This document shows positions 2,326-55,067 of a stretch of DNA of 64,000 nt, piece after piece; position 1 is the stretch's first letter; the number at the start of each line of letters is the position of its first letter. This DNA is from an uncultured Alphaproteobacteria bacterium. Its GTDB lineage: Bacteria > Pseudomonadota > Alphaproteobacteria > Rs-D84. The translations under genes were made by a program, and so were the position numbers. A model generated the notes under the pieces. It did no database searches and had not been told where the DNA came from. It was given only the letters and a program-made list of their open reading frames with translations. The DNA is taken from assembly GCA_905233975.1 (NCBI GenBank), contig CAJOGD010000001.1, forward strand, positions 86,263 to 150,262, given 5' to 3'.

Positions 2326-3204
2326 ATGACAACTTATATTTTGATTGCAATGTGCGCGGTTATCATCATCATGCTGGGCGCGCTGCTTATGCGGCCGGCG
2401 AAAACGGACATGTCCGCATTACACGAAGACAACGCACGCCTGCGCGAACGCCTTGCGGAACGGCTTGGCGCATTGTCGCAAAATGCGATTGAACTTAAAA
2501 ACATCAGTTCGGACATCGCGAATTTCAAAAATATCCTTATGGGCAACAAACAGGCGCGCGGCACATTCGGCGAACGACAATTAGAGGATTTAATCACCGA
2601 CATTATGCCACCGGAAACATATGCTTTTCAAAGTGTGCTAAACACCGGCGTTCGACCGGATTGCATAATCCGCCTGCCTTATCCGCCGGGCGACATGATT
2701 ATCGACAGCAAATTTCCATTGGAATCGTATAACCACATGTGCGGCGACGACAACCCGGAAATGTATCGCAAGCAATTCGAATTGGACGTCCGCAAACACA
2801 TCGACGCAATCGCCGAAAAATACATAATCCCCGGCCAAACCGCAGAGGTCGCAATGATGTTCATCGCGTCCGAATCTATATTCGAAACGTTGCACCGCGA
2901 ATTTCCGGGCACAGTCGAATACGCCGCACGCAAGAAAGTATTTATCGTTTCTCCGGCGACGCTTTGGGCAACACTTAACACGATTCGCGCGGTGCTATCG
3001 GATATAAAAATCAAACGCGTCGCGGGCCAAATTAAACGCGAACTTGACATGTTGCTGACGGACCTTTCACGACTTGCAGACCGCGCAGCCCGGGTACAAA
3101 GTCACTTTGCGATGACACAGACGGATTTGGAACAACTGCAAACATCAATCGGCAAAATCACCCCCCGCGCAGAAAAGATAAAAGAATTGGATTTTGAGAA
3201 ATAG
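2326..3204 (+). CDS. rmuC: DNA recombination protein RmuC
   Basis: 292 aa with an N-terminal TM segment and a coiled-coil (AELKNISSDIANF), consistent with RmuC family architecture. Confidence 0.7.
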   Translation: MTTYILIAMCAVIIIMLGALLMRPAKTDMSALHEDNARLRERLAERLGALSQNAIELKNISSDIANFKNILMGNKQARGTFGERQLEDLITDIMPPETYAFQSVLNTGVRPDCIIRLPYPPGDMIIDSKFPLESYNHMCGDDNPEMYRKQFELDVRKHIDAIAEKYIIPGQTAEVAMMFIASESIFETLHREFPGTVEYAARKKVFIVSPATLWATLNTIRAVLSDIKIKRVAGQIKRELDMLLTDLSRLADRAARVQSHFAMTQTDLEQLQTSIGKITPRAEKIKELDFEK

Positions 3205-3207
3205 AGG

Positions 3208-3302
3208 ATAGTGTTAGTGCAAGTGGTTAGTGTAAGTGCGGGCGCGTTGCGCCCGTTTGTGTTCCCGACCCACTAACCACTAATCACTAACACTTACACT
3301 AA
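3208..3302. repeat. MITE-like palindromic repeat, copy R1. Arms built from AGTGTTAGTG / CACTAACACT units around a GC hairpin CGGGCGCGTTGCGCCCG.
   Basis: Left arm tagtgttagtgcaagtggttagtgtaagtg (3208-3238) is the reverse complement of right arm cactaaccactaatcactaacacttacact (3271-3300). Same family recurs at 4768, 22507, 51768 and 62321. Confidence 0.8.
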
Positions 3303-4366
3303 TTCTGATTCTGTGGGATATAGACGTTTTCGTTATATGTTGTTTCTGTCCAATCTTCTTCAAGCGGTGTGGCCAGTAGGTATATTACGATTACAGGTGT
3401 GCCTGCTGCGTATTGTGCGGCAAGATATTGTTTCCAATCTTCAACACTTGTGCAATCGTTGTATTTAAAAGAAAAAACACCGGATGTAGTACCTGTTGCA
3501 TAAGTTTGTTTTACGCTTCCGTCTGGCATATTAGCATTTGACGCGTCAGACCCAACGAAAAGATTTGACAACGCTGGTTTCGGCGGGTTACAAGACAACA
3601 CGTCGGCAAAACTAGCATAAAATACATTGTAATTGTTAATTTTTGTCCAGTTTTCCGTTCCATCAAGTACTTTTACACCAACGCGTCTTGTGATTTTGTG
3701 TGTGGTGGCGTCGAAAGAATCGGCATAGTCACCGACTTTGCGTAATACCATATCGCCCTGGCGATAGAAAACGGGATAAATCGGATTCGTTGGCGTTGGT
3801 GTGCCGTTTTGGGTGGCGGTACCAGTTGCCGAAACGTATTCTGTATTGTTATGTATCGTATAAAGCCAACAAAGTCCGGACACCGGATCGCGGTTTTCGG
3901 AACAAACGAATTCACTATCAAGTCCGTTTTTAAGTGCCGCATTAAATGTTTTTGCGTCGATTAAATTATCAGATTGTTCCGCATACGCGCCGGTTGCTTG
4001 GTAAATTCCCTTTTGTCCGATTTGTCCGGCCGTTCCGGTATATGTGACCGCGGTGTGATCGTTAAACGGGTCTATGTCGTCCTGTTTTTGGTTTAGTTTT
4101 GTATTTACACCACCAACCATGGGCAGTGATGTGTCGGTAGTACTGGTTCCCAAATCAGATTTGACTGCGCGTTTCTGCACCGTTCCGGCCGCGTTTGTGT
4201 ATTCCATGGCTTTGTTTTGTTCCGCGTCGAATTTGTTTTGTCGCGTATCAAGTTCATGTTCGACATATTTCAATGACGTTGCGGTTTTGCGGTCCGCCGC
4301 TTCTTCGGCAAACGCCGGCAACACCGCCGCCAACAATCCGAACATCAAAAACTTTTTCAACTGCAT
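3299..4366 (-). CDS. secreted protein, paralog family A copy 1. Sec signal peptide; Thr/Gly/Asn-rich with a variable C-terminal half.
   Basis: N-terminus MQLKKFLMFGLLAAVLPAFA-EEA is a signal peptide. About 85-90 percent identical over the first ~160 aa to ORF 37882..38988. AGGAGA SD sits 8 nt upstream. Confidence 0.7.
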   Translation of the reverse strand: MQLKKFLMFGLLAAVLPAFAEEAADRKTATSLKYVEHELDTRQNKFDAEQNKAMEYTNAAGTVQKRAVKSDLGTSTTDTSLPMVGGVNTKLNQKQDDIDPFNDHTAVTYTGTAGQIGQKGIYQATGAYAEQSDNLIDAKTFNAALKNGLDSEFVCSENRDPVSGLCWLYTIHNNTEYVSATGTATQNGTPTPTNPIYPVFYRQGDMVLRKVGDYADSFDATTHKITRRVGVKVLDGTENWTKINNYNVFYASFADVLSCNPPKPALSNLFVGSDASNANMPDGSVKQTYATGTTSGVFSFKYNDCTSVEDWKQYLAAQYAAGTPVIVIYLLATPLEEDWTETTYNENVYIPQNQN

Positions 4367-4390
4367 TTAACTCTCCTTTCTCTTTTTTTT

Positions 4391-4487
4391 CCGTCATCCC
4401 GCGCTTGACGCGGGATCTCCTCAGGCTTTCCTGAGAATTAACTCTCTGCCGGTCCAACGGGATTCCGGCTTTCGCCGGAATGACGGC
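4391..4487 (-). promoter_or_regulatory. structured 5-prime leader element of paralog-A gene. Three hairpins closed by a CCGUCAU/AUGACGG helix; riboswitch-like.
   Basis: On the gene strand, GCCGUCAU..UCCGGC-GAAA-GCCGGA..CUCAGG-AAAG-CCUGAG..UCCCGCG-UCAAG-CGCGGGA..AUGACGG lies directly upstream of the SD. The second copy at 39014..39152 has compensatory changes in the last hairpin (ACCGCC-UUUC-GGCGGU). Confidence 0.5.
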
Positions 4488-4564
4488 TCCTACCCGTCTC
4501 CGCTATCGCTCCGTCGCGGTTCGTTTATTTGCGCACAAATAAACGAAACCACCGAAAATCTTCT

Positions 4565-4722
4565 AGTGGTTGGAGGTTAACGACTATGTTCCGAGAAAAT
4601 AGTGGGCTTATTCGATATATTCACCGCCCTCCAACCACTTTTTTGGTTGGAGGTATTTTATGTCCCCGCAGACACTCGGAAGCCAAGGGTCGTTACACCC
4701 CGCCGGCGGAACACCCACCGAC
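4565..4722. promoter_or_regulatory. conserved distal leader box shared by both paralog-A loci. Perfect hairpin CCTCCAACC(N6-8)GGTTGGAGG plus a CCCCGCCGGCG(A/G)AACAC(C/T)CACCGAC box.
   Basis: Nucleotide-level conservation with 39196..39368. The small ORFs overlapping it are in different frames in the two copies, so conservation is not at the protein level. Confidence 0.4.
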
Positions 4723-4767
4723 AAATTCATTTTATCAAAAAACGTAAACAAAAAACAAGTGAAAAAA

Positions 4768-4933
4768 GTGGTTAGTGTTAGTGATTAGTAGATAGTATAC
4801 CACACCCCGGCCTGCGGCCACCCCTCTCTTCGTCGCGCCCAAGGCGCGACAGAGGGGAACTTTGGCCCGCAACAGCAAAAACGCGGGGCATTGCCCCGCG
4901 CACTAACCACTTACACTAATCACTAGCCACTAT
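4768..4933. repeat. MITE-like palindromic repeat, copy R2, with a ~110 bp GC-rich internal insertion
   Basis: Arms gtggttagtgttagtgattagtag and cactaaccacttacactaatcactagccact. Interior holds nested palindromes CCCCTCT..AGAGGGG and GCGGGGCATTGCCCCGC. Confidence 0.75.
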
Positions 4934-5529
4934 CTTCTCATTCCTGTCTTGGAATCTATCCACACCTGTTCATCGGCGATGTTCATCATGGGCAAATCGG
5001 ATTTACTGTCCGAATAGGCACGCACGACATGCGGAATATATTTATGCGCCACCGCCCATTCGTCCATCGCAATAACCTTTGCTTTGCCATAACACAGGCC
5101 GGCGTCATATTTCCATGGATTCTTTTCATTCATTTTCGAACAAATCACCGCGTCAAAAGGCAAATCACGAACCAACTTTGAAATCAAATAATCCGGCGAC
5201 GCGGTAATCAGCAAAACCATATTCCCGCGCGCGCGTTCGTTTGCAACCTGGTCCGCGGCCCAGCCAAACCGATTACGCCGATGTTCGCGCACAAAGTCCG
5301 GAACGAATTTTTTGACCATGTCGGCGGTTATAAAGCGACGCATATTTTGCCGCCACCACATACCACCACTATTGAAAAAGCGCGCAACATAACACACACC
5401 AATCAATGGCAAAAACAGCCATGGCCGCAAACTGCGCCGAAAACAATAACGCCCAAATGCGAAATTCGAATCCGGCCAGGACAGCGTTCCATCAAAGTCA
5501 AACAAAACTACATCAACGGGTTTTAACAT
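4930..5529 (-). CDS. HAD-superfamily hydrolase (HAD-IB / phosphoserine-phosphatase-like)
   Basis: N-terminal DFDGTL motif (VVLFDFDGTLS); 199 aa. Confidence 0.6.
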   Translation of the reverse strand: MLKPVDVVLFDFDGTLSWPDSNFAFGRYCFRRSLRPWLFLPLIGVCYVARFFNSGGMWWRQNMRRFITADMVKKFVPDFVREHRRNRFGWAADQVANERARGNMVLLITASPDYLISKLVRDLPFDAVICSKMNEKNPWKYDAGLCYGKAKVIAMDEWAVAHKYIPHVVRAYSDSKSDLPMMNIADEQVWIDSKTGMRR

Positions 5530-9084: not shown

Positions 9085-9684
9085 TTATTTTTGAACGTTT
9101 ATTTTTTGTCCCGCTTCGACTTTGGACAGCACGATAACATCGCCATCGTGTATATCGCCAACGACACATGAAAAATCAGAATCACCGGCCTTTACCGTCA
9201 CAGGCACCGCAACCGCCGCACCTGATTCGGCACGCATAATTTGCGATTCGCGCACCGCATAGGTCGGAATAAAGAATCCATTACATTCGGTTTCTGCAAA
9301 CACAACACCGTTATCAACATTACGCGTTTTAACGACATACATACCCGTATTTAAATCCAACTGATTCGCCACAGAAACAATCGTACCCGCGCCGACCTTT
9401 TGTCCAACTTTTAAGCCACGTCGATGCGCACCCGAAACATATGCGCGATTATTTTCGACCGAAAGCGGGGTTTTAATAATACCTGTCTTTTGTTCGGCAA
9501 CAATGGTCGCGACCACCGTTCCATTTTTTCCGGCATCACGCACAGGGTTAAAAACATTCATTCGCGATTCAATTGCAACCATAACGAAACGATACACGAA
9601 CCAAAGCGCCAATACGACCAAAACCGCCGTATAGACGTTTTTCTTTACTTTTTTATCATCAAATTTTTTACCAAATATTTTCAT
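9085..9684 (-). CDS. efflux periplasmic adaptor (membrane-fusion protein), unusually short
   Basis: N-terminal TM anchor then a beta-rich domain. At 199 aa it lacks the usual long coiled-coil hairpin. Position between the RND and OMP genes fits an adaptor. Confidence 0.5.
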   Translation of the reverse strand: MKIFGKKFDDKKVKKNVYTAVLVVLALWFVYRFVMVAIESRMNVFNPVRDAGKNGTVVATIVAEQKTGIIKTPLSVENNRAYVSGAHRRGLKVGQKVGAGTIVSVANQLDLNTGMYVVKTRNVDNGVVFAETECNGFFIPTYAVRESQIMRAESGAAVAVPVTVKAGDSDFSCVVGDIHDGDVIVLSKVEAGQKINVQK

Positions 9685-9686
9685 GA

Positions 9687-11006
9687 TTATTCACCCAATT
9701 TTTTAATTGATTCTGCCGACATCAAAATTTTGTATTTTGCATTAAGCAACGCCATATCTAATTGATACAACCCGTTGGACACATCGGCCAATTCAACCGC
9801 CGACGTTTGACCGGCCGCAAACCTGTCGCGCGAAAAACCATACGCCTTGGCCGCCAAATTTCTGGCATTAGTAAGTCCTTTCAGATTTCCACGCAAATGA
9901 TTATATTGCTTTATCGCATTGGTATATTTTTCCGAAGTAATCTTTTTAGATTTTTCAAAATCTTGGCGTACGGCCTCTGCATTCATTACCTCTACCGTCG
10001 CATTCGCCCGATTGACACCACCACTAAAAATCGGCACTTTCAGTGCAAGTCCTAAATACGCGGCCTGCTCTGCCCGGCTGTTAAACATATTTTTCAAATC
10101 TTTATCCATAGTAAAATAGTCGTACGCACCAACGGCCGCAAGTGTCGGATAACCATTCGCCCGATTTGCAGACGCCTTGGCTTCATACATTTTTATTTGT
10201 TGGTCTAACACCTGCCATTCCGGCGTACTGGACAATTTTTTATTTTCTATTTCCGGGAAAGATTCCGGAAAATTATCGGTCAAATTTAAGGGTTCATCAA
10301 TATCTATACCCGCAAGAATTTTCAACATTCTGTGCGCGGTGTCGCGATTAAATTCCGCATCAGAAAGGTTAATTTCTTTGGTCGCAATATCTGATTCAAT
10401 CTTTACCAAATTTCCACGATTCGCGCGCCCCGCACCGGTCAATTTCTTTTTTGCCGACACCGCATCATTCAAATTTTTCCGCGCAATTTCAACAATTTCA
10501 TCGGTCATTTTGGCCGTCCAATACAAATCAACGGCCGCATAGCGCACTTCGCGCATGACCATTTCTTTGCTATATTCACTCATCTTTATCGCATTGCGCA
10601 CACTATCGACCGCATTTCCAATTTTGCCAAACGTATAGATTGGTTGTGTAATCGTCACACCCGCCATAAAGATATTATCTGGGACATCTATATTTTCTAT
10701 TCCCGCCATTTGCGGAATCAGTCCACCAATTTCCGGTGGCAATTGCACATTGAACGAATCGAAAGGTTTTTCAACATTAATCAGGCTCATATACGTTGCG
10801 GTTCCTTCGATGTTAAACCAACGCAACGCATTTACCGCGTCCAAAGACGCCTGGGCCTTTTTTACATTAGCATCGGCCTTTTTCAAATCATGCGATTCAG
10901 CCATAATTTTTTGCACCGCATCACCAAGCGACAAATCCATCGCAAAACCGTCTATACAGCAAAATCCGGCGTATAGCGCAAAAAGACAACCAAAAAATTT
11001 ACGCAT
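9687..11006 (-). CDS. TolC-family outer-membrane efflux protein
   Basis: 439 aa with a signal peptide and repeated coiled-coil/beta segments. Operon context fits an efflux OMP. Confidence 0.7.
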   Translation of the reverse strand: MRKFFGCLFALYAGFCCIDGFAMDLSLGDAVQKIMAESHDLKKADANVKKAQASLDAVNALRWFNIEGTATYMSLINVEKPFDSFNVQLPPEIGGLIPQMAGIENIDVPDNIFMAGVTITQPIYTFGKIGNAVDSVRNAIKMSEYSKEMVMREVRYAAVDLYWTAKMTDEIVEIARKNLNDAVSAKKKLTGAGRANRGNLVKIESDIATKEINLSDAEFNRDTAHRMLKILAGIDIDEPLNLTDNFPESFPEIENKKLSSTPEWQVLDQQIKMYEAKASANRANGYPTLAAVGAYDYFTMDKDLKNMFNSRAEQAAYLGLALKVPIFSGGVNRANATVEVMNAEAVRQDFEKSKKITSEKYTNAIKQYNHLRGNLKGLTNARNLAAKAYGFSRDRFAAGQTSAVELADVSNGLYQLDMALLNAKYKILMSAESIKKLGE

Positions 11007-16833: not shown

Positions 16834-17520
16834 TTATTTCTTGAACGGTGCGCGGCATTCGCCATCGCCGTCTTTTGGACAGCATGCGAAATTCAGGTGT
16901 TCTATCTGCTTGAAAACCTCACCCTCACAGCAACCATATTTATTTGGTTTACTGCCGTCGCCACAAAGCCCCTTGGCAAAGTTTTCCGCGATTTGTGCCT
17001 GGCGATCTTCTTCCGAAACCGCGGGTTCGGCGGCAACCGCCTGCGTTGTCTTTTTCGCCACAACCGGTGCGGGTGCGACCTCTTCTACCTCTGGCGCCGG
17101 GGCTTCTATATCAACAATCGGATTCACGTTTTTATAGTTATGCACCGGACGACGTGTGGCACGTGGCGCACACTGATTACGTTGACGCGTCAACATATAT
17201 TCCAAATCCGCGCGCAGTTCCGGATAGGCCTTGACATCGGCACGCAATTCCGCGATACGCGTTTCAATATCGACACACGTCATACGATCGGCAACGGCGC
17301 GCGGTGCCGGGACATCCGCGGCCGCCGTTTCTGATTCCGCGGTGTCATCTGTATTATCGGTTAATTCTTCGTCTATCAAATCTTCGACATCGTCAAAGAC
17401 TTCATAGTCTTCGTATTCTTCGGTGGTATAATCAGAATACACATCGTCTTCGGCATAACCGACGGGCGCCGCAAAGCACAGCGCAACGCCCATCAAGATT
17501 CCGATTGTTTTTATTTTCAT
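16834..17520 (-). CDS. secreted acidic protein with a Cys-rich C-terminus
   Basis: Signal peptide MKIKTIGILMGVALCFAAPVGYA, then an Asp/Glu-rich stretch, ending CGDGSKPNKYGCCEGE..ACCPKDGDGEC. Confidence 0.5.
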   Translation of the reverse strand: MKIKTIGILMGVALCFAAPVGYAEDDVYSDYTTEEYEDYEVFDDVEDLIDEELTDNTDDTAESETAAADVPAPRAVADRMTCVDIETRIAELRADVKAYPELRADLEYMLTRQRNQCAPRATRRPVHNYKNVNPIVDIEAPAPEVEEVAPAPVVAKKTTQAVAAEPAVSEEDRQAQIAENFAKGLCGDGSKPNKYGCCEGEVFKQIEHLNFACCPKDGDGECRAPFKK

Positions 17521-17533
17521 ATTTATTTGCCCT

Positions 17534-18355
17534 TTATTCTTCGATGACCTTTTGCAATTCCATAATGAATTCGATTCCCGGGTCCAACATCTTTTCAACC
17601 TTGTTCAGGTACCGGCGCGCTTCATTTTGCATGCGTAATTTTTTATACGTGTTAATCGTAGAACGAACTTCACGCGGATTCACATCACTGGCATTTATGC
17701 GCACACCGTCGGCAATCTGCAATTCGTCCAACGCGTTTTTACGATACATATCCGCGTTTTCGGCGCACCCATCTTCGGCAAGTTTCGAATAAACCTCGGC
17801 ATTATTAAGGTGGCATTCAGAAACATATTGATGTGTATCACAGCTGTATATAATACGTCTTGTCAACGCGTTTTCAATTTCACGACAAGGCTTTTCAACA
17901 AATTCCGTATTTGTTTTTTCAACGCCGGTTATCGCACTCATATATGTCCGTTCGTTGGCCGCCATTTCTGCAAAATATCCGCGATTTTCCAAACAGCCTG
18001 TATCCATCAAACGCCGATAGACCATCATATTACTTTGGTGCAAACTTAACGCATTCGGATTTCTATCATCAATAGATTTTACAATTCTATTTTTCAACAC
18101 GCGTTCATTTATTTGGCATGGTTCTTGGGGTTCGGGGTCGGCCACATCAACAACCGTTTCCGCCACCGCAACCTTTTCCTCTGTCTTTACGGCGGAATCC
18201 GGCGTATTCGCCAATTTGTGTCCCAACGGATAAAGCCCCGTCATAACACCACAACCAAATATGCCTATCAGCAATACCCACGCCCAAAACTTTTGTTTGC
18301 GCGAACAGATATAGCAATTTTCGCATGTATTATAATTAAACTTTTTTTCGTTCAT
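17534..18355 (-). CDS. membrane-anchored hypothetical protein (N-terminal CxxC pair and a single TM)
   Basis: N-terminus CENCYIC then a TM segment WAWVLLIGIFGCGVMTGLY. 273 aa, no recognised domain. Confidence 0.45.
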   Translation of the reverse strand: MNEKKFNYNTCENCYICSRKQKFWAWVLLIGIFGCGVMTGLYPLGHKLANTPDSAVKTEEKVAVAETVVDVADPEPQEPCQINERVLKNRIVKSIDDRNPNALSLHQSNMMVYRRLMDTGCLENRGYFAEMAANERTYMSAITGVEKTNTEFVEKPCREIENALTRRIIYSCDTHQYVSECHLNNAEVYSKLAEDGCAENADMYRKNALDELQIADGVRINASDVNPREVRSTINTYKKLRMQNEARRYLNKVEKMLDPGIEFIMELQKVIEE

Positions 18356-18391
18356 TTTTCTCTCTCCTTTTGTTTTTTTGTTTATTGTTTT

Positions 18392-19102
18392 TTATTTAAC
18401 TGTTCCATTTTTTATTGTTATGCGTCGATCCGCACGATTGGCCAACGACATGTCATGTGTGACAAACAACATCGCCATTTTATTCTTGCGCACCAACGAA
18501 AGCAACAATTCAAAAACCGCAACCGCGTGATTCGGATCCAAACTGCCCGTTGGTTCATCGGCAAGTAATATGTCGGGATTATTCGCCAACGCGCGCGCGA
18601 CCGCGGTCCGTTGTTGTTCACCACCCGACATTTGCGCCGGTAAATGCGATGCACGATGTGCAACATTCGCCGACTTTAAAAGCGTCATCGCACGTTGCGT
18701 CGCCGTATCCGTTGCAATACCATTCGCCAACATCGGCAACATCACATTTTCAAGCGCGGTAAAATCCGACAACAAATTATGCCGCTGGTACACAAAGCCC
18801 ATTTTACGACGCCGAACCATTGTCCGCATTTCATCATTCATTTTATGCACCGGCGTGCCGGATACAATAATACTGCCGCCCGACGGTTTATCCAATAACC
18901 CGACACATTGCAATAACGTCGATTTACCACAGCCCGACGGCCCAACAATCGCAACAATTTCACCACGATGCAAATCAAACCCACCGCCGGTTAGGATATG
19001 TAATGGCTGGCCCCCTTCGACAAAGGTCTTTTTTATATCACGCACCGAAAGGACGACTTCGCCCTTTTTCACCCGCGATAAAGAATTCAATATCGACGCC
19101 AT
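18392..19102 (-). CDS. lolD: lipoprotein-releasing system ATP-binding protein
   Basis: Walker A GPSGCGKST, ABC signature LSGGEQQRTAVARAL, Walker B ILLADEPTG. Lies adjacent to a LolC/E-type permease. Confidence 0.8.
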   Translation of the reverse strand: MASILNSLSRVKKGEVVLSVRDIKKTFVEGGQPLHILTGGGFDLHRGEIVAIVGPSGCGKSTLLQCVGLLDKPSGGSIIVSGTPVHKMNDEMRTMVRRRKMGFVYQRHNLLSDFTALENVMLPMLANGIATDTATQRAMTLLKSANVAHRASHLPAQMSGGEQQRTAVARALANNPDILLADEPTGSLDPNHAVAVFELLLSLVRKNKMAMLFVTHDMSLANRADRRITIKNGTVK

Positions 19103-19110
19103 TTATCTCT

Positions 19111-20364
19111 CTATTCGTTTCTCAACACCTCTACTGGGTCTGTGTTTGCCGCTTTCCATGCCGGATAAATCGTGGCCAGGAACGCAAGTGCAATCGCAAT
19201 CAGCGCAATTCCCAACACCGTCACAAACTCTACACGCGATGGCAATTCCGACAAATAATACAGTTCCGCCGGAAACAGGTCGCGCCCAGTTGCCCACTGA
19301 AAGAATCGCCGTATTGGTTCGATATATGTTGCAACCACCACGCCCAATGCCGTTCCGAACACCGCACCGATAACACCGATACTGGTTCCCGACAATATGA
19401 ATATGCGCATCATCGAACGCCGCGACACACCAAACGTCCGCAACACCGCGATATCTTTGGATTTATCCTTTACCAACATCACCAACGACGAAACTATATT
19501 AAACGCTGCGACAATAACAATCAACATCAAAATTAAAAACATAACATTTGATTCTACTTGCAACGCACCAACAAAGCCCCGATTTAAATCGCGCCAATCG
19601 CGCACAATGTATCCATCGGGCAAAACATCAATCAATACGTCGCGCACCGCGTCTGTATCATTCGGATTTTTCAAAAACAAATCAATGTGCGTGACCGCGT
19701 CACCAAGGTTCAAATATTTCTGCGCCGTTTCCAATGGCATAAATATATACCCCGAATCATATTCATACATTCCCATAAAGAACGATGTCATTACCGGATA
19801 CGACATAATCCGCGGCATTGTTCCAAACGCGGTCGGCGTTGCATTATCGGCGGAAACAAGTGAAACATTTTCACCCATATGCACCCCCAAATTCCGCGAA
19901 AGCGTTGACCCAATAATCAATTCCCCATCGCGAATGTCCGACAAATTACGGCCATACATGCGCACACCACTGTTGGTTTTCGTCATCAAATCATTCATGC
20001 GAATACCGCGCACCATCGCACCAGAATTTTTTCCATTCGCGGTCACCATTACCTGGCCTTCGGCAATTGGGACAATGGCGGAAACGCCACGCGCCACCGT
20101 TTTGTTTTCCAACATTTTTTCGGCCAAGAAATCATAGTCCGCAATTGCGCCGTCTTGGTGATACACAACAACATGACCATTCATTCCAACAATCCGCGCA
20201 AGCAACGTATCATGAAAACCGCCCATCACCGACATCACAACAATAAGTGTTGCGACACCCAACATAATACCAATCAACGACACCCACGACACAACCGAAC
20301 CAAACCCGCGCCGCCGCGCCGCCAAATATCTGAATGCAATTTTTCGCTCTAGCCTTGTGAACAT
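19111..20364 (-). CDS. lipoprotein-releasing system permease (LolC/LolE, MacB-type FtsX fold)
   Basis: 417 aa with a TM1-periplasmic domain-3TM layout. Immediately upstream of lolD. Confidence 0.75.
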   Translation of the reverse strand: MFTRLERKIAFRYLAARRRGFGSVVSWVSLIGIMLGVATLIVVMSVMGGFHDTLLARIVGMNGHVVVYHQDGAIADYDFLAEKMLENKTVARGVSAIVPIAEGQVMVTANGKNSGAMVRGIRMNDLMTKTNSGVRMYGRNLSDIRDGELIIGSTLSRNLGVHMGENVSLVSADNATPTAFGTMPRIMSYPVMTSFFMGMYEYDSGYIFMPLETAQKYLNLGDAVTHIDLFLKNPNDTDAVRDVLIDVLPDGYIVRDWRDLNRGFVGALQVESNVMFLILMLIVIVAAFNIVSSLVMLVKDKSKDIAVLRTFGVSRRSMMRIFILSGTSIGVIGAVFGTALGVVVATYIEPIRRFFQWATGRDLFPAELYYLSELPSRVEFVTVLGIALIAIALAFLATIYPAWKAANTDPVEVLRNE

Positions 20365-20377
20365 GAATCAAACACCC

Positions 20378-21709
20378 TTATTTCTTTAACCAATCGCGCA
20401 ACGCATCGCCAACCAACGGCACATCATTTGGAATATCCGCCGGATTCACAATCGACACAAGACGCGGCGACATAAACACGACAAGTTCCGCAAACGGACT
20501 TATCAATGTTTCCGGCGTAGTCACAAACGAATGCGTCGGAATACCAACAATCAGATAATTATCCCCTATGCTGGACGGAATGGTGAACGAAGACAATTCG
20601 CCATTACTGGTGCGCAAAACAATTTTTGCATCGATTTTATCTTTGCCACCGAAATCGCCATACTTTGCGGTTGCGCCAACAATTAAATCAGTTTCCAATC
20701 TTTCTTCTTTACCACACTGCCCAATATCAAACCGCGATTGCCAACCGTCCGGCACAACAAAATGCCCCTGGGATATAAGGACGACATTCGCCTGTTGCGA
20801 TAAAAATTCTTGCAACGTTTTCGTATTAACCTCTGGCCCAACGACCAACGCACGCCCGACAACACCGGGAATTGACATTTTGATATTTTTTTCGCCAAAC
20901 GCCGGCAACATATTCATCCATATAATCGGATTATCGGTCCGCGGATAAACACGATACACGTCCATATCCCACGCGATGACATACTTTTTGGACGATATGT
21001 CAGAAATGATTCGTGCAACCTCGCGCTCTGTCTGATAATTACCTTCGAATATAAGTGTATTATCGGACCAATCAACAATCACATTCCGGACATCGGCGCC
21101 ATGCATCGCGTCCAAAATGGCCATAACAATATCTTCGTCCTTTGGCATTTTAACAAGCCACTTTCCACGATTAAACAATTTCAATTCGCCAAGTTTCGCG
21201 TCATACGAATAATACGCCCGCCCAAGGTGCGTCATCAAATCCACCGCATCGCCAAGGTTTCCGCCCGCAATAGACCCGGATATTCTTTCAAAAATCTGTT
21301 CTTGCTCTATGACCGCAATATCCGTCCCCGAAAGCAATTTATCCAACGCGTCGCGAACAGTTTGCTTTCTAAAATCGTAATTCGAAACGGTCAGTTCCGG
21401 CAACGGGTCGCCAACATTCAAACGCACCAATTCAATCTTTTCGTCCGGCACCACAGACATAACCGATTGCGAATCCCAATCCACAGTGCAACGTCGTGGC
21501 AATTCAACCGAAAAACGACGCGCCGTATCCGTTGTGAGCGCCGCCTTTTTCGGAAAGATTGGCACAGAATTATCATCTATGACCAAACTATCAACAACCT
21601 GAACCGTATTATATTCCACGTTTTCTATATCTTTCGGATCCGTCACCTCCATACAACCGGCCAAAGACACAGACGCACATAGTAAAATAAAGTTTTTTAT
21701 TTTTTTCAT
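20378..21709 (-). CDS. lipoprotein, unknown function
   Basis: Lipobox LAGC in MKKIKNFILLCASVSLAGCMEV; 443 aa. Precedes the lol genes on the same strand. Confidence 0.55.
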   Translation of the reverse strand: MKKIKNFILLCASVSLAGCMEVTDPKDIENVEYNTVQVVDSLVIDDNSVPIFPKKAALTTDTARRFSVELPRRCTVDWDSQSVMSVVPDEKIELVRLNVGDPLPELTVSNYDFRKQTVRDALDKLLSGTDIAVIEQEQIFERISGSIAGGNLGDAVDLMTHLGRAYYSYDAKLGELKLFNRGKWLVKMPKDEDIVMAILDAMHGADVRNVIVDWSDNTLIFEGNYQTEREVARIISDISSKKYVIAWDMDVYRVYPRTDNPIIWMNMLPAFGEKNIKMSIPGVVGRALVVGPEVNTKTLQEFLSQQANVVLISQGHFVVPDGWQSRFDIGQCGKEERLETDLIVGATAKYGDFGGKDKIDAKIVLRTSNGELSSFTIPSSIGDNYLIVGIPTHSFVTTPETLISPFAELVVFMSPRLVSIVNPADIPNDVPLVGDALRDWLKK

Positions 21710-21727
21710 ATTATCCTTCCCATATCT

Positions 21728-22051
21728 TTATATATTCATCGCCCTTTCGAATTCTTCGAGTGACATTTCATAAATCGGCTTTTGCGAAGGCGTCACCCAT
21801 TCATGCACACCCGCCAATTGTTTTTTAAACATTTCCATCACAGATACAACATCTTTTTCAACACCCTTGGTTGATTTTAGCAAACGTTCACCATATTCCA
21901 CAACAAATTCTAATACATCGGCGGCAAAGAAGCGACCAACATAATTTTCTATTGGAATTCCGCCCTTTGACACACATATCGCAGACATGGTTTTTGCCAT
22001 CTGGTTATAAAAATTTGCCAACTTTATAAAGTTTTCAACTGTGACCGCCAT
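21728..22051 (-). CDS. hypothetical protein
   Basis: ORF trimmed to MAVTVENFIKL. No motif recognised. Confidence 0.4.
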   Translation of the reverse strand: MAVTVENFIKLANFYNQMAKTMSAICVSKGGIPIENYVGRFFAADVLEFVVEYGERLLKSTKGVEKDVVSVMEMFKKQLAGVHEWVTPSQKPIYEMSLEEFERAMNI

Positions 22052-22127
22052 CTCTTTTCTCCCAATGTACTTTTTCACATTATAAAAACTATTGCCACAA
22101 AAACGCAATTAAATTATAATGTGAAAT

Positions 22128-22508
22128 ATGAAAATGTTAAAAGTATTTTTATTGCTGGTTTTATGCGCCTGTGCATCGCCCAATGGGGGCAGTATTGATG
22201 ACGCCACAATCCTGAATTGGGAAAACGAATCCGTCACAATGGAACAATTTGTTCGCGACCACAAGGCGTGTTTGGGAATAACAAAGCCATCATATTTGCC
22301 ACGTTCGCGTATAGCAAAATTGCTTTCACCGAATCAAAGTGCGCGCATGCCTGACTGGGACGGTCTTTGGGTGACATTCCAATCGAACGAATATCGTGAC
22401 GTTGGTCAACGCGCACTGCTGTCCGTTCCGCGCAATACAACATCGCGGTCTGTGGGTTCTTATCGCAAGTGTATGTTTAATCGTGGCTATTTACTCCGCG
22501 CCACGTAG
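22128..22508 (+). CDS. small lipoprotein
   Basis: MKMLKVFLLLVLCACASP lipobox. Confidence 0.5.
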   Translation: MKMLKVFLLLVLCACASPNGGSIDDATILNWENESVTMEQFVRDHKACLGITKPSYLPRSRIAKLLSPNQSARMPDWDGLWVTFQSNEYRDVGQRALLSVPRNTTSRSVGSYRKCMFNRGYLLRAT

Positions 22509-22606
22509 TGGCTAGTGGTTAGTGAATGAATTCTGTAATAATCGCGTAATTACAAACTAATTCCAGATATTACTAACCACTAACACTAATCACTAACACT
22601 TCCCAC
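22507..22606. repeat. MITE-like palindromic repeat, copy R3
   Basis: Arms agtggctagtggttagtgaatg and ctaaccactaacactaatcactaacacttcccact. Interior cgtaattacaaactaattccaga is shared with copy R4. Starts at the stop codon of the preceding gene. Confidence 0.8.
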
Positions 22607-22629
22607 TAAAATATGTTATAATACCCACC

Positions 22630-23310
22630 ATGAAACGTAATCTTTGGTTTTGGCTGTATTTTATTGCCGCAATTCTGCTTGCGATATATTTTGCGACGCG
22701 GATTGTTATGGCGCATATGGGCTATGGCCCAACCGCGATGATAAGGAACGTATCGGTATTTGCGGATACAAATGACAAAGACCTTACCACTATCGTTGCG
22801 GCGGCCGGCATACCGTCCGGGACACATACATATGCAATAAAACTTACATTTGTGAACGAACGAATCGCCCAAACACACATTGCGCGTGAATCCGCCGTCC
22901 GACGTTTGGCAAATGGAAATTTGGCGATAAAGGTTAATCTTTATCGTGCCGTTGCCGAAAGAACAGACGGTGTAAACTATTACCAACTTTCTGCGGACGG
23001 CAAAGATATAAAAAATCCGTCCGCCACACGTGGCACCGGCACAGTATTGTTCCGCGGTCGTGTTCCAAACGAAATTGGCGAAATTACCAAGGCCGCCGCA
23101 AACCTTGTCGGCGATCTTGATTATCTTGAATGGATTGATAATCGCCGGTGGAACCTTGTGACACTTGGTGGAATTACTGTTATGCTGCCCGAAACCGACC
23201 CTATTGCCGCGATTGGAAATCTTGTTGTATTAAATAAAAAATATAATATTCTATCAAAGGACATAAAGGTCATCGATATGCGCGACAACGCAAGAATTTT
23301 GGTTAAATAA
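22630..23310 (+). CDS. ftsQ: cell division protein FtsQ-like (TM plus POTRA)
   Basis: N-terminal TM, POTRA-like IRNVSVF, and a C-terminal beta domain. Lies immediately upstream of ftsA. Confidence 0.55.
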   Translation: MKRNLWFWLYFIAAILLAIYFATRIVMAHMGYGPTAMIRNVSVFADTNDKDLTTIVAAAGIPSGTHTYAIKLTFVNERIAQTHIARESAVRRLANGNLAIKVNLYRAVAERTDGVNYYQLSADGKDIKNPSATRGTGTVLFRGRVPNEIGEITKAAANLVGDLDYLEWIDNRRWNLVTLGGITVMLPETDPIAAIGNLVVLNKKYNILSKDIKVIDMRDNARILVK

Positions 23311-23311
23311 A

Positions 23312-25099
23312 ATGCGAATGATTGATTCTTGTTTTTTGTGTCTTGATATTGGGACGTGCGGTGTTCGTGGTGTTGCGCATCGCGTTCGAAACGCGGTAAT
23401 TGATAAATCCGCATATTATGCCATTGACGATTTTGACACTGTGTTTGCATTAAAATCTGTGGCGGACGAACTTGAAAAACAAATTGGAACGCATTTTGAT
23501 ACTGCATACATAACCGGAAATTTCGGAAACGCTTTTTTCAGTATATCTGCCAAGGAAACGAAATGGTCAACCGAACACAAAATTACAAACTCTGATATAC
23601 GGACGCAAATCGCACAAATTGATGCACCTGATGATTTTTATCCAATGCATATAATACCATTGCGATACGATTCCACAAAAATCCGTAATATGTTAACCCC
23701 CATTGGCCAGGCGGACACCGCACTTGTATCTACTTTTGCTGGGATATTTTTTGAAAACGAACGCATGCAAAAAATCCTTAGTCTTTTGCGCCAATCACAT
23801 ATTCAGCCTTCGGCATTTTACGCACCGCAATTTCTTTACGGAAATGTTCTACGAAAAAAGAAAACAATCGTAATGTTTATTGATTTTGGGGCCGAACACA
23901 CAACCGCATCCATTTGGACCGATCGTGGCCCGGTTTGGTATTCTGCAAATTTTGCCGGCGGCAACGATTTGACCGAAGAAATATCAACCAGACTTGATAT
24001 ATCTTTTTCCGAAGCCGAACGCATAAAGCGCAACACCGCCGATTTATATTCAAACGAAATGGCGCGTTTTAGCCCCGCGGACAGCGCATACGCTTTTTCT
24101 TGCGCCGACGTAAATGAAATTGTTGTTCCGTTTATATACAATCTTGTTGAACAAATCCAAACGGCTTCGGCCAAATATGTTGAAAAATATGCACCTTGCG
24201 AAATCGTATTGACCGGCGGCGGCGCACAATTAAAAGGCATCGTCGAATTATTATCTGGACGCTTTAATATTCAAATAACACAAACCGGCCCCGACACAAA
24301 TGTTCGCGCACTGGCCAAATATATATGGGATTCTGTCCGTCCGTACCGCAGTGCATATATTGCAAGATTAAAACGTTGGCAAAAAATCACGAATAAAATC
24401 TTTGGAATATTCCACCATCGCAAACAACCCAAGAAACAAAAAACATTTATCCCAATTATGCCAAGCACACTTTGCTTTGACATGGCCCGGCCGGAAACAT
24501 ACACCATGTTTCGTTCAGGCGGCATATCAATTATACACGTCGATATTATGGACGGGCTTTACGTTGACAAGATTACCGGTGGCATTACGGAACTGCGCAA
24601 CATACGCGCCGCATGGCCCGGACATTTGCATGTTCATCTGATGACGGACGCACCCGCAACATGGGCAACCGACGCCATAAACGCGGGCGCGGATACGGTA
24701 ATACTTTCAACAAACACCGTCGGATTGCGTCGCGCCGTCCAAATTGTCCGCACATCGGGCAAACGTGTCGGAATCGCACTTAATCCCGAATCTTCGGTAT
24801 CTTTATTAAAAACGATTCTGCGCGACATTGATGAAATTATGGTGATGGGTGTCGCGCCCGGTGCGGCGGGTCAAAAATTCAATATGAATGTGCTAAATAA
24901 AATATCCATACTTGCCAAAGCACGCAAAAAATACGGACTTAAATTTATAATTTCCGTAGATGGTGGAATAAACCCCGAAACCGCAAGACTTTGTTGGGGC
25001 GCCGGCGCCGATTTGTTGGTCAGTGGTTCATACCTTGCGCACGCCGCCGATTTTCCAATCGCTGTGATGTCATTGTTGCCATCGGCAACCGGTATTTAA
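23312..25099 (+). CDS. FtsA (actin-like cell-division ATPase) fused in frame to ribulose-phosphate 3-epimerase (Rpe)
   Basis: Residues 1-375 carry FtsA motifs LDIGT, MFIDFGAEHTTASIW, ANFAGGNDLTEEIS and VLTGGGAQLKG, then an amphipathic helix. Residues ~380-595 carry Rpe motifs (HVDIMDG and a TIM-barrel pattern). Single ORF with no intervening stop. Confidence 0.7.
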   Translation: MRMIDSCFLCLDIGTCGVRGVAHRVRNAVIDKSAYYAIDDFDTVFALKSVADELEKQIGTHFDTAYITGNFGNAFFSISAKETKWSTEHKITNSDIRTQIAQIDAPDDFYPMHIIPLRYDSTKIRNMLTPIGQADTALVSTFAGIFFENERMQKILSLLRQSHIQPSAFYAPQFLYGNVLRKKKTIVMFIDFGAEHTTASIWTDRGPVWYSANFAGGNDLTEEISTRLDISFSEAERIKRNTADLYSNEMARFSPADSAYAFSCADVNEIVVPFIYNLVEQIQTASAKYVEKYAPCEIVLTGGGAQLKGIVELLSGRFNIQITQTGPDTNVRALAKYIWDSVRPYRSAYIARLKRWQKITNKIFGIFHHRKQPKKQKTFIPIMPSTLCFDMARPETYTMFRSGGISIIHVDIMDGLYVDKITGGITELRNIRAAWPGHLHVHLMTDAPATWATDAINAGADTVILSTNTVGLRRAVQIVRTSGKRVGIALNPESSVSLLKTILRDIDEIMVMGVAPGAAGQKFNMNVLNKISILAKARKKYGLKFIISVDGGINPETARLCWGAGADLLVSGSYLAHAADFPIAVMSLLPSATGI

Positions 25100-25509
25100 T
25101 CCGCAATTTCTATTTTTCGTCCGTCTTGGAATTCTGATATATACACATGCAATGTATCATGTGGCAGAAAATCTTTCGCAATGTCCGGCCATTCTATCAA
25201 AGTAATATCGTTCTGTATCGCATGCACCAAACCAATTTCAACAAGTTCCGAAGCGTCCACAACACGATACAAATCAAAGTGCGATATTTTATTTCCACCA
25301 CTTTCATACGATTGCACAATTGTAAATGTTGGACTTGGCACCACCGTATCCGCACCACAAAGCGATTGAATTATCGTTCTTGCAATTTCTGATTTTCCCA
25401 CACCCAAATCGCCATGCAACGCAATCGTCACCGGCGCATGCAAAGTTTTTGCAAAATTCCTTGCCCAATCGCGCGTTTCATTTATATTTTTTGTTATATA
25501 TGTTTTCAT
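25096..25509 (-). CDS. tsaE: tRNA threonylcarbamoyladenosine biosynthesis ATPase TsaE
   Basis: P-loop GDLGVGKS; 137 aa, YjeE-like. Confidence 0.75.
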   Translation of the reverse strand: MKTYITKNINETRDWARNFAKTLHAPVTIALHGDLGVGKSEIARTIIQSLCGADTVVPSPTFTIVQSYESGGNKISHFDLYRVVDASELVEIGLVHAIQNDITLIEWPDIAKDFLPHDTLHVYISEFQDGRKIEIAD

Positions 25510-25512
25510 TTT

Positions 25513-30035: not shown

Positions 30036-30112
30036 CCGCCCGCAACCGCGGGCGACACTAACACCAAGCCGGGGCAAAGCCCCGGCGCAGTCTCGCCGTA
30101 GCCCTTTGGGCG
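30036..30112 (+). terminator. pair of GC-rich hairpins between the convergent asmA-like and aspS genes
   Basis: CGCCCGCAACCGCGGGCG and CCGGGGCAAAGCCCCGG. Confidence 0.35.
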
Positions 30113-30125
30113 AAGGCGGATAACA

Positions 30126-32552: not shown

Positions 32553-32649
32553 TATTCGCAAAATTACCCCCCGATTATACGGTTCCCAACAAAAAAATCA
32601 AGGAAAAACGTTCTCCTCTGGCTAGAGGGGTGGCCGCAGGCCGGGGGGG

Positions 32650-33240
32650 TCACCCCACCACCCTAACCCGCCCGGGAATATCGATGTCTGGTCGCGTATC
32701 TGGCGCGGTGGCGATTCCGCCGAATGGCATTTGTGCAACCAATATCCACCCGGCCGGCAAATCAAACATTTCGCGCACCATATTATCAATCACCGGGTTA
32801 TAGTGCTGTAAATTCGCGCCAATATTCATTCCGCCCAGGCCGGTCCAAATTGCGAACTGCAACATTCCGTTCGATTGCATAACCCAATCGTGAAAATTTT
32901 CGGCATAGCCCGGATATGCCCGCCGCGTTTCTTCGACCGCCGCCGTATCATAAAAATAAAGAACCGTTCCATACGCCGCCGCAAACGAATCGATTTTGTC
33001 GCGCGAAAAACGTCCGCCGGTAAATTTCACCATTTCATCATAAACGGCGTTCCAAAATTTTTCGTGCCGTTCGCCCATAACCAGAACCACGCGTTGACTT
33101 TTCATATTAAACGCGTCCGGCACATATTGCACCGCCGCACGAACAAAGTCGGCAACCGCCCCCTCGGCCACTGGCAACATTTTATTCAGTCCATACACCG
33201 ACCGACGGCTTTTAAGCAAGTTTATAAATTTATTCATCAT
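32650..33240 (-). CDS. nitroreductase-family protein
   Basis: N-terminal LLKSRRSVYG, a variant of the nitroreductase RRSxR motif. Confidence 0.6.
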   Translation of the reverse strand: MMNKFINLLKSRRSVYGLNKMLPVAEGAVADFVRAAVQYVPDAFNMKSQRVVLVMGERHEKFWNAVYDEMVKFTGGRFSRDKIDSFAAAYGTVLYFYDTAAVEETRRAYPGYAENFHDWVMQSNGMLQFAIWTGLGGMNIGANLQHYNPVIDNMVREMFDLPAGWILVAQMPFGGIATAPDTRPDIDIPGRVRVVG

Positions 33241-33920
33241 TTCCCCCTTAACTTTTTTAATTTTAGTTTATGTTCCGGCAACACGCGATAGGATTCTATG
33301 GCCTTTTGAATTGCACGCGCCCGCGTCCACAAATCAAGGCGTTCAAAATAAGGATAAACGACATCAAAGTGCTTTGCGGCGGCGGTTGCGAAATACCACG
33401 CCCGCATCATATTTATATAATATTCATCTGAATTTATATTCAACACCATATCGGCATATTTTTTATCAAACCCCACATCCATATAGTATCGCATCAGACA
33501 CAACACCGCGAAACGCACCGCATAGACGTGTTTTGACCGCAACCATTTTTCGATATACAGCAAAAGTTTATCGGCATTTTTTGCAAAAATCTTTGGCGAC
33601 ATTTGATCGCATGTTGCCCAGTTATCAATGTATCCCAAGAATTTATCCACCGCACGCACCGCCGAATCAAAATCATGAATTTCGGAAATTATAAACGCAT
33701 GCAACTGATTTTCTTCGAAATATTTGTGTGGCAATTCCGCAACAAAATCCACGCATACGCCGGATTTAGCCATATCGCGCGCCATCGCACGCAACACCGG
33801 CGTTCGCACACCAATAAATTTATCCGCCACAACCGTCGGAACAAGTCCCGAATTAAAATCCCTGTATCCGGCGTCCGCCGCCGCATACAGGGATCTAAGA
33901 ATCGTATTTTCTTTTACCAC
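33237..33920 (-). CDS. DNA alkylation repair enzyme (AlkC/AlkD HEAT-like repeat family)
   Basis: 227 aa all-helical repeat protein with an AlkD-like pattern. Confidence 0.5.
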   Translation of the reverse strand: MVKENTILRSLYAAADAGYRDFNSGLVPTVVADKFIGVRTPVLRAMARDMAKSGVCVDFVAELPHKYFEENQLHAFIISEIHDFDSAVRAVDKFLGYIDNWATCDQMSPKIFAKNADKLLLYIEKWLRSKHVYAVRFAVLCLMRYYMDVGFDKKYADMVLNINSDEYYINMMRAWYFATAAAKHFDVVYPYFERLDLWTRARAIQKAIESYRVLPEHKLKLKKLRGK

Positions 33921-38988: not shown

Positions 38989-39013
38989 TTTTCTCCCCTT
39001 TTTTCCTTTCTTC

Positions 39014-39152: not shown

Positions 39153-39195
39153 GCTAACTACTGACCACTAACAAAAACACCACCGAAACGTTTCA

Positions 39196-39368: not shown

Positions 39369-39503
39369 AAATATTCTATCAAAAATCACAAATAAAACAC
39401 AAGCAATTTTTGCGCCCTATCGACACAACACATCAACATTCGGACAAAATCCCGCCCAATTACTATTTGAACATTGCCCAAAAATAGTGTATAATTATTC
39501 GTC

Positions 39504-55045: not shown

Positions 55046-55067
55046 CAACAATAAAAGGATGTTGAAA

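Follow-up and report, generated by a model that had tools for sequence, protein, structure and literature searches.

Five intergenic sites in a 64,000-nt stretch of DNA from an uncultured Alphaproteobacteria bacterium (contig CAJOGD010000001.1 of assembly GCA_905233975.1, positions 86,263 to 150,262 of the forward strand; hereafter the window, numbered from its first letter) carry members of one repeat family, four as palindromic copies (R1 to R4) and one as a solo arm (R5). The copies consist of inverted arms made of tandem 6- and 7-nt units around variable centres, and they adjoin the stop codons of six genes, encoding RmuC, a surface protein with a second copy in the window (paralogs A and B), a HAD protein, two lipoproteins and YchF. 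The refined limits of the elements, together with their parts and the stop codons they contact, are as follows.

3209-3302: R1, whole element
3209-3238, plus strand: R1 left arm, TAGTGTTAGTGCAAGTGGTTAGTGTAAGTG; begins 4 nt past the RmuC stop codon (3202-3204)
3238-3264, plus strand: R1 centre, a GC hairpin of 8 pairs (7 of them GC) followed by TTGTGTT, resembling an intrinsic terminator for rmuC
3271-3302, plus strand: R1 right arm, CACTAAC CACTAAT CACTAA CACTTA CACTAA; its last unit gives the TAG stop of paralog A (355 aa; 3299-3301, minus strand)
4757-4933: R2, whole element
4757-4797, plus strand: R2 left arm, AAGTG AAAAAGTG GTTAGTG TTAGTG ATTAGT AGATAGT
4799-4866, no strand assigned: R2 GC-rich module, ACCACACCCCGG...GAGGGGAACTTTGG; a separate repeat family
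4871-4901, minus strand: R2 hairpin resembling an intrinsic terminator, 9 pairs (8 of them GC) with the tail TTTTGCTGTT; oriented as for the minus-strand HAD gene
4901-4933, plus strand: R2 right arm; its last unit gives the HAD TAG stop (4930-4932, minus strand)
22506-22609: R3, whole element
22506-22524, plus strand: R3 left arm, TAGTGGCTAGTGGTTAGTG; its first TAG, in the terminal unit, is the stop of the 126-aa lipoprotein (22506-22508)
22525-22570, no strand assigned: R3 core module, left half degenerate, ..CGCGTAATTAC..AATTCCAGA
22571-22609, plus strand: R3 right arm; holds the −35-like CTAACA of a promoter-like site
51767-51870: R4, whole element
51767-51797, plus strand: R4 left arm
51798-51838, no strand assigned: R4 core hairpin, complete, TTTCTGGAACAAATCCGTAATTACGAATAATTCCAGAC
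51839-51870, plus strand: R4 right arm; its last unit gives the TAG stop of the 139-aa lipoprotein (51867-51869, minus strand)
62321-62353, plus strand: R5, solo arm between the YchF gene and a Bro-N gene; the minus-strand mRNA reads UAG-UGUUUAGUGUAAGUGGUUAGUGGAAAGUG, and its first TAG in mRNA sense is the YchF stop (62350-62352)
32612-32660, minus strand: lone copy of the GC-rich module, with a T-run after it; begins on the TGA (32650-32652) that ends a nitroreductase gene

Arms, centres and stop codons in the window

The right-arm pattern ACTAACCACTWAN{0,1}CACTAA has five matches in the window, exactly at R1 to R5, versus none in 100 shuffles; a looser 13-mer pattern has 23 matches versus 1.7 expected, and a detector of unit spacing finds nine arrays of at least three units versus 0.32 in shuffled sequence. 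These counts confirm the four full copies and the solo arm reported by an earlier examination of the letters alone (the sequence-only reading), which had described the arms as CACTAA hexamers forming terminal inverted repeats of ~30 nt. The arms are indeed built from repeats, inverted, and able to pair over 25-30 bp; however, their unit is not a pure hexamer and their ends are not fixed, as they are periodic arrays of variable length. In particular, Tandem Repeats Finder (TRF) returns periods of 6, 7 and 13 at all five sites, where head-to-tail, intergenic arrays alternate 7-mers with 6-mers (GTTAGTG-TTAGTG or CACTAAC-CACTAA, a 13-nt period), and a repeat finder recovers the same arms. Read on either strand, the 5′ arm is (G/A)TTAGTG-TTAGTG and the 3′ arm is CACTAAC-CACTAA. 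A single duplicated region as the source of the copies was rejected, because their flanks are unrelated; the sole large duplication, paralog A (3299-4759) versus paralog B (37886-39403), ends at the borders of R1 and R2, and paralog B carries no arrays at the matching places.

The centres are exchangeable modules, made of a conserved core hairpin of ~40 nt, a GC-rich module and/or an intrinsic terminator. R3 and R4 have the core hairpin (TCTGGAATAA..CGTAATTACG..TTATTCCAGA) in common, complete in R4 and with a decayed left half in R3; this is the internal sequence already noticed in both copies, and it is also found at 21 other loci. A GC-rich hairpin with a T-run, resembling an intrinsic terminator, occupies the centre of R1 on the plus strand and that of R2 on the minus strand, and the R1 hairpin is homologous to a hairpin in loci L148, L197 and L223. 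The GC-rich DNA first taken for one insert in R2 is present but is not a single insert, as it comprises a repeat module and the terminator hairpin of the HAD gene. The module has a 23-nt exact inverted match at 32624-32646, both of its window copies (4799-4866 and 32612-32660) carry ..CCCCGGCCTGCGGCCACCCCTCT..GAGGGGAAC.., and it recurs at the same relative position in metagenome loci L228 and L159/L220.

The suggested check on folding stability yielded stems of −25 to −88 kcal/mol with z-scores of −4 to −10. Folding of the full copies produces long, imperfect arm stems of 25-30 bp, with −44.1 kcal/mol for R1 (z −6.1), −87.9 kcal/mol for R2 (z −6.9), −24.7 kcal/mol for R3 (z −4.0) and −47 to −48 kcal/mol for R4 (z −8.6 to −10.3), while the solo arm R5 does not fold by itself. 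A known RNA family was rejected, as nothing was found in Rfam: at the gathering thresholds of Rfam 15 only four tRNAs match in the window, and a permissive search of 3150-5000 returned only a chance match to mir-2278 (E = 0.89).

The contact with stop codons, which had been noted for every copy, is real. A terminal unit supplies the TAG in five of the six abutting genes, the RmuC stop being the one that lies 4 nt off, and all six genes end in TAG, versus 11 of the 55 other genes of the window (20%); TAA is the commonest stop codon. RmuC and YchF are not truncated, because their Pfam matches run to the last residues, and both lipoproteins have clear lipoprotein signal peptides. Since each unit reads TAG on one strand and TAA on the other, and since the 7-nt period rotates the frame, the arrays hold stops in all frames. 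This property alone does not explain why the first TAG is the in-frame one: in a cross-phylum sample of solo arrays, seven open reading frames (ORFs) end in the first unit, one in the second and none in the third. Across the family, the distance between gene end and arm is −2 to +5 nt in ~25 cases. A target-site preference, as had been proposed, is one reading of this contact among three; alternatively, only harmless insertions may survive in a genome that is 88% coding and whose spacers have a median length of 20 nt, or the arrays may originate at the stop codon.

Further, R3 reaches into a putative promoter of the next gene. A promoter-like site at 22593-22622 (CTAACA-18-TGtTATAAT, 10 of 12 matches, with an extended −10) has its −35 within the R3 right arm, and it is conserved in the relative L143 described below. 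The site ends 8 nt upstream of the ftsQ ATG (22630), so that the ftsQ mRNA may be leaderless.

The family in strains and related genomes

A metagenome scan with a pattern combining core and arm gave 102 matches, of which ~75, all from sample Ga0307507, were discarded as an unrelated repeat. The remaining matches are 21 distinct loci from nine rumen and gut metagenomes, with the same arms and core as in the window; they have AGTG units in the 5′ arm, CACT units in the 3′ arm and, between the two, the core TCTGGAATAA..AATTA..TTATTCCAGA, the right half of which was set in advance by the search pattern. A Candidatus Enterousia metagenome-assembled genome (MAG; L029) carries the same element with a bidirectional terminator inside, and intrinsic terminators often lie inside or directly against members of the family. 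The family therefore extends to at least 21 further loci and this MAG, beyond the five sites first seen, and its hosts are a clade of uncultured gut and rumen Alphaproteobacteria related to Candidatus Enterousia. The source organism of the window has GapR, and homologues of its RmuC bear the name 'Alphaproteobacteria bacterium'.

Within the species, R1 is present in 10 of 10 strain contigs. Its left arm is 13 nt shorter, by one 7+6 unit pair, in strains L121, L123, L124, L128 and L130, and four strain contigs (L121, L123, L124 and L130) have a GC-rich insert of ~45 nt at the outer end of the right arm, which lengthens the adjoining protein from 355 to 375 aa. The insert is itself a third GC-rich repeat (..GCCAGGACAAAGCCCCGGCGCAG..), with a window copy at 30055-30133. 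Recombination between two copies was considered for L123 and rejected, as the differing gene beyond R2 is another tandem paralog. Strain look-ups at R3, R4 and R5 returned no contigs or identical ones and are thus uninformative on polymorphism.

At a larger distance, a 293-kb contig (L143) is syntenic with window positions 16856-25864 (9 kb) at ~81% DNA identity and has R3 at the orthologous place. The R3 arms of the window and L143 differ by indels of 12, 7 and 6 nt, the core is ~85% identical, and the outer unit and the ftsQ promoter-like stretch are nearly identical; the L143 lipoprotein ortholog ends in TAA, followed by the array. Similarly, one locus seen in two strains (L137 and L209) differs by 7 nt and by two 13-nt units. 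Overall, the arms evolve like simple-sequence repeats, gaining and losing whole units, and the elements are long-term residents at gene 3′ ends. Filled and empty versions of a site were not found among at least 10 same-species strain contigs or in the relative with 81% DNA identity.

The arrays themselves contain insertions. A 33-nt GC-rich palindrome, CCGTCGCGGCACGCCGCGCCGCGGTCGTGACGG, lies inside the right-arm array of L137 and is absent from L209, and inserts like it are also found inside arrays in L148, L150, L159/L220 and L173. The arrays are thus places into which a further small element inserts.

Relatives at 87-92% protein identity carry arrays after rmuC and the HAD gene, in simpler forms. 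A relative with 89% rmuC identity has TAG, ~2.5 units and a terminator, with no second arm; in a relative with 87% rmuC identity, the 23 nt between two convergent genes consist entirely of a single array, which includes both stop codons; and the only empty rmuC site is that of a relative with 80% rmuC protein identity, where the flanks cannot be aligned. The rmuC array begins one variable base past the TAG in four species. The HAD gene is followed by its stop, a solo array and a terminator in L298 and L299, and its stop is TAA (TTATCTTCTC) in L296, which lacks the array, and TAG (CACTATCTTCTC) where the array is present. Because relatives carry this form downstream of rmuC and HAD, the conserved state appears to be a stop codon, an array in mRNA sense and a terminator, and the full palindrome is a variable elaboration of it. 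At the corresponding region of L296 (92% RmuC identity), a mosaic of ~345 nt at 3850-4240, composed of GC modules and a core remnant, replaces the paralog-A gene and is flanked by a direct duplication of ~40 nt of the rmuC 3′ end.

Heptamer arrays in other phyla and around PF05635 genes

The arm pattern occurs in at least 120 genome loci, mostly as pure heptamers, from Cyanobacteria, Chloroflexota, Bacteroidota, Planctomycetota, Victivallales, Firmicutes, Acidobacteriota, Proteobacteria and others. A G-array precedes a C-array in 25 of 26 close genome pairs and in all viral-contig pairs with gaps below 120 nt, and the arms of one pair are often unequal in length. A G-rich 5′ arm as a universal rule was rejected, as it holds for the GTTAGTG family and fails for other units (L060, L318). 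In array-bearing loci, TRF gives 432 rows at period 7 versus ~63 at periods 6 and 8, and arrays of other units number more than 200; in viral contigs, (CACTAAC)3 is found at 40 loci versus 10 and 10 for two permuted heptamers, making it four times commoner. The C-arm seemed to lie just upstream of start codons, but this was discounted as mostly an ORF-calling artefact: ORFs are called from the first start that follows a stop, and since stops fall in every frame of the arrays, part of the apparent proximity to starts is produced in this way.

Two further settings of the arrays were observed. In the high-GC, phage-like IMG/VR contigs L258, L274 and L275, a short G-to-C heptamer hairpin follows almost every small gene, one of which is Mu Gp36-like. 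In the Alphaproteobacteria MAG RGIG837 (L091, 7202-7798), a G-array and a C-array ~530 nt apart bracket tRNA-Arg(TCT) and a second tRNA-like stretch.

No paper was found on GTTAGTG/CACTAAC as a bacterial repeat or on the inverted-pair architecture, the nearest being work on TAACTGA repeats. That heptamer crosses phyla, with no known mechanism of transfer, and binding of S1, Csp or CsrA has been proposed where it adjoins start codons (MacGregor 2015, PMC4679880). More generally, PMC4679880 cites Mrazek 2007 for the finding that among long simple repeats the heptanucleotide ones are the most abundant, and for their attribution to slippage.

Genes of the PF05635 (23S intervening sequence, IVS) type have arrays beside them as well. 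All four PF05635 genes in the loci ascertained by the arm pattern are flanked by heptamer arrays: those of a Ruminococcus and a Thiohalocapsa (L003, 3190-3664, and L098, 4309-4766) have inverted GTTAGTG/CACTAAC arms, one (L060, 3560-4110) has inverted arms of another unit, and one (L043, 3330-3930) has arrays of one unit on both sides. Moreover, of ~13 distinct PF05635 loci found by protein similarity alone, most have flanking arrays of short tandem units, the arms being clearly inverted in ~8, and each locus has its own unit. Over all of these loci, viral contigs L303-L319 included, the units are GTTAGTG, CAGTTCA, ATAGGGW, GGCTGTT, GTAGTCT, TTAGGAG and others. At four loci a long host ORF runs uninterrupted across the entire cassette (L303, 1-1716; L304, 79-1614; L305, 1-1677; L309, 1-1728), with the PF05635 ORF in frame +1, and in three of the four the host ORF is PglX/Eco57I-like, encoding ..YAVGCMFGRYSLD.. 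before the cassette and ..DNVIP..DDEYF.. after it, which looks like in-frame insertion or dual coding. A four-helix-bundle gene as the general cargo of GTTAGTG arrays was rejected, since it is present in only 4 of 120 loci; the converse holds, as PF05635 genes are flanked by heptamer arrays. No paper was found on heptamer arrays flanking PF05635 genes, and neither the window nor the related alphaproteobacterial loci yielded a PF05635 ORF.

It is conceivable, if quite unlikely, that a widespread class of heptamer-armed cassettes, so far undescribed, carries PF05635 (Avd-like) genes and that the window elements are its miniature, ORF-less form. What would define the arms of such a class is their periodicity and polarity, with stop triplets in all frames, and not a fixed sequence; its cassettes would settle on stop codons and, in some phage-like contigs, inside a PglX-like gene. 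Such a class, if it exists, implies a way of making or recognising ends unlike that of known transposases.

Known systems, competing explanations and other features

Several known systems resemble the family in part. Heptanucleotide simple-sequence repeats, in the descriptions of cyanobacterial STRR sequences, of the long repeats of Mrazek 2007 and of TAACTGA that PMC4679880 provides, also have tandem 7-nt units with stop triplets, lie in intergenic positions beside start or stop codons, show strain indels in 7-nt steps, break assemblies and are patchy across distant phyla with no known mechanism of transfer. Published TAACTGA-type cases are direct repeats (169 direct sets versus one indirect set in BOGUAY; PMC4679880). 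In contrast, the unit here is GTTAGTG/CACTAAC mixed with a 6-mer, and the arrays form inverted pairs of fixed polarity around a hairpin, a terminator or a small gene.

The REP, BIME and REPIN sequences of Enterobacteria and Pseudomonas are likewise extragenic palindromes at 3′ ends and between convergent genes, arranged as a mosaic of motifs; they number hundreds of copies, and REP sequences form RNA stem-loops that protect the upstream mRNA. Liang, Rudd and Deutscher reportedly found in 2015 that REPs within ~15 nt of a stop codon affect translation termination. However, there is no sequence similarity, the arms here are variable tandem arrays of 6- and 7-mers, and the REP-like unit, GTAG plus a short imperfect palindrome, was not found at R1 to R5. 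The Correia elements of Neisseria (CREE/NEMIS) are 100-155 bp long, with inverted ends of ~26 bp and TA junctions, and are placed beside genes; they can create promoters and act as terminators, and their transcribed hairpins are cut by RNase III. Correia ends are fixed and unique and the copies near-uniform, whereas the window elements have periodic ends of variable length and exchangeable centres. BOX elements of Streptococcus pneumoniae are intergenic and modular, with variable tandem boxB sub-units between end modules, and form stable RNA structures; their tandem units are 45 nt long and central, whereas those in the window are 6-7 nt long and form the arms. Lastly, 23S IVS elements with an S23p ORF (PF05635) have a terminal stem of ~28 bp and a variable interior with or without an ORF, and are cut by RNase III, while their origin and mobility remain unsettled (PMC4990558). 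Free-standing PF05635 genes (L003, L098) are bracketed by GTTAGTG/CACTAAC arrays identical to those of the window; unlike the IVS elements, those of the window have no ORF and lie outside rRNA, with long complementary ends present.

Taken together, R1 to R5 are best described as a dispersed, modular, palindromic intergenic family that most likely acts in RNA, a reading to which we assign a probability of roughly 55% and whose functional part we infer. A transcript entering from either side would first meet stops in three frames; a stem of 25-30 bp would then form, enclosing a terminator or the core, and the element would act as a 3′-end or intercistronic RNA stem-loop. Its roles may include closing translation, reinforcing termination or insulating tightly packed genes from each other, blocking 3′ exonucleases and offering a site for RNase III, and it could donate a −35-like hexamer to the next gene, as R3 may do for ftsQ. 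The REP and Correia arrangements stabilise or process messages, and the sequence-only comparison with REP, ERIC and Correia elements was apt. Terminators in or against the elements and the hairpin after almost every small gene of the phage-like contigs were counted for this model. Further, a stem of 25-30 bp has the length at which RNase III cuts IVS stems, as for one of 28 bp (PMC4990558).

The proposed role as a terminator or mRNA-stabilising stem-loop gains support from the stable stems and from the terminator-like hairpins in two copies; its terminator part does not extend to R3 and R4, which have no classical terminator. Indeed, several points weigh against an RNA stem-loop. We infer each of its functional steps; the terminator scan found no GC-rich hairpin with a T-run in R3 or R4, and AUUUAAUAAUUU alone follows the long stem of R4. 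Moreover, a stem-loop cannot account for the solo arrays, seemingly the conserved state in relatives, because R5 does not fold. Transcription that stops at an internal terminator would leave the 3′ arm out of the RNA, so that no long stem could form. The core common to many unrelated loci needs a copying mechanism, and the contact with stop codons may reflect survivorship in a very compact genome, not function.

A first rival explanation, which we regard as unlikely, is an active or recently active miniature inverted-repeat transposable element (MITE; the sequence-only reading had called the family MITE-like), mobilised in trans by an IS630/Tc1-mariner-type transposase that targets TA. Specifically, GTG...CAC would insert into the TA of a TAA stop to give TA-GTG...CAC-TA, turning TAA into TAG and leaving the protein intact. 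All defined ends do read TAGTG...CACTA, the abutting genes use TAG in six of six cases though TAA is the commonest stop, the HAD gene ends in TAA without the array and in TAG with it, the copies are numerous enough to break assemblies, and the common core argues for copying as a unit. However, TAGTG/CACTA is simply the repeat unit, so that the apparent TA duplication is not independent evidence and no target-site duplication could be defined; the rmuC array begins one variable base past the TAG in four species, filled and empty sites were not seen within the species, and both the centre and the length of the arms are highly variable. In the loci examined no transposase with such ends was noticed, the window genes not having been screened for transposases, and the same arms bracket unrelated cargo, namely tRNA-Arg (L091), four-helix-bundle genes (L003, L098) and small phage genes. 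A MITE is therefore not demonstrated, as target-site duplication, filled/empty polymorphism and transposase were not found; the notion of a demonstrably active one is not supported, and with variable arrays and mosaic centres a REP/BIME/Correia-like mosaic element with simple-repeat arms fits better.

A second explanation is that the arrays are functionless heptamer repeats made by slippage, which survive where they are harmless, from the stop codon outward, and acquire a second arm by fold-back template switching across a terminator hairpin. Whole-unit indels are found everywhere, period 7 dominates among array-bearing loci with more than 200 arrays of other units, abundant heptanucleotide repeats are ascribed to slippage in the account of Mrazek 2007 given in PMC4679880, a solo array plus terminator is commoner in relatives, the arms of a pair are often unequal, and the model predicts the fixed G-then-C polarity. 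Nevertheless, we consider it improbable: one unit at all loci of a genome and in many phyla is unexpected for a local origin, (CACTAAC)3 exceeds its permuted heptamers fourfold in viral contigs, core and outer unit have been conserved in a relative whose genome is 81% identical, and the core and GC modules at unrelated loci need copying. Very unlikely, in our estimate, is that the arrays are protein- or ribosome-binding platforms for post-transcriptional or translational control of the kind proposed for TAACTGA repeats, in which the G-free CACUAAC arm would be a standby, S1 or Rho site, unmasked when a terminating ribosome melts the stem, and would couple translation of neighbouring genes. The 5′ arm begins on the stop codon, inside the ribosome footprint; the 3′ arm ends 12-40 nt before the next start in operon-like contexts (for example R3 and L275); the polarity is fixed, with a G-rich, C-free arm first and a C-rich, G-free arm second; and MacGregor 2015 (PMC4679880) proposes S1, Csp or CsrA binding for the TAACTGA case. 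Against these points, coupling is impossible at R1, which lies between convergent genes, and at R2, which holds a terminator; the closeness to starts is partly an artefact of ORF calling, and no protein emerged as a candidate binder.

Small intergenic repeats affect where transcripts end, how stable mRNAs are and how genomes rearrange, and the well-studied families come mostly from cultured model bacteria, while this one belongs to an uncultured gut and rumen alphaproteobacterial clade. The family unites palindromic REP- and Correia-like elements with heptanucleotide simple-sequence repeats, which are usually treated apart, and it offers testable rules, namely an arm that begins on the stop codon, a constant polarity and interchangeable centres. 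If all of these arrays form one system, it bears on why heptamer repeats abound in some bacteria and on what IVS/S23p elements are. In practice, metagenome assemblies break at the arrays, and gene callers should expect the TAG stops that these create.

Other features were noticed along the way. The ~75 discarded Ga0307507 contigs (among L134-L235) carry a highly repeated element of ~200 nt, ..TTTCATTTCCAGAATTTACTAACCACTAAC..GGTCYGGTCTGGTCT.., which matched the pattern by chance; its copies have many C/T and G/A differences and are unrelated to the window family. A second, unrelated palindromic repeat family (TATACGCCGGATTCCGCCGTATAG-like) is scattered in the window at 13-44, 1208-1240, 9603-9637, 10944-10979, 18178-18217, 33745-33774 and 40874-40912. 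The genes of surface-protein paralogs A and B have a long leader (4367-4756 on the minus strand, and 39100-39403; also L298, 5250-5450, and L299, 4960-5100) with conserved alternative pairings, AGTGGTTGGAGG / CCTCCAACC ... GGTTGGAGG plus a T-run, which has no Rfam match and looks like an attenuator or an unknown riboswitch. Finally, positions 54000-62000 of the window are AT-rich (33-40% GC), adjoin a tRNA gene (56939-57012), contain a Bro-N gene and hold local inverted and direct repeats, including 59173-59292 and 59506-59582; this region is probably an integrated element.

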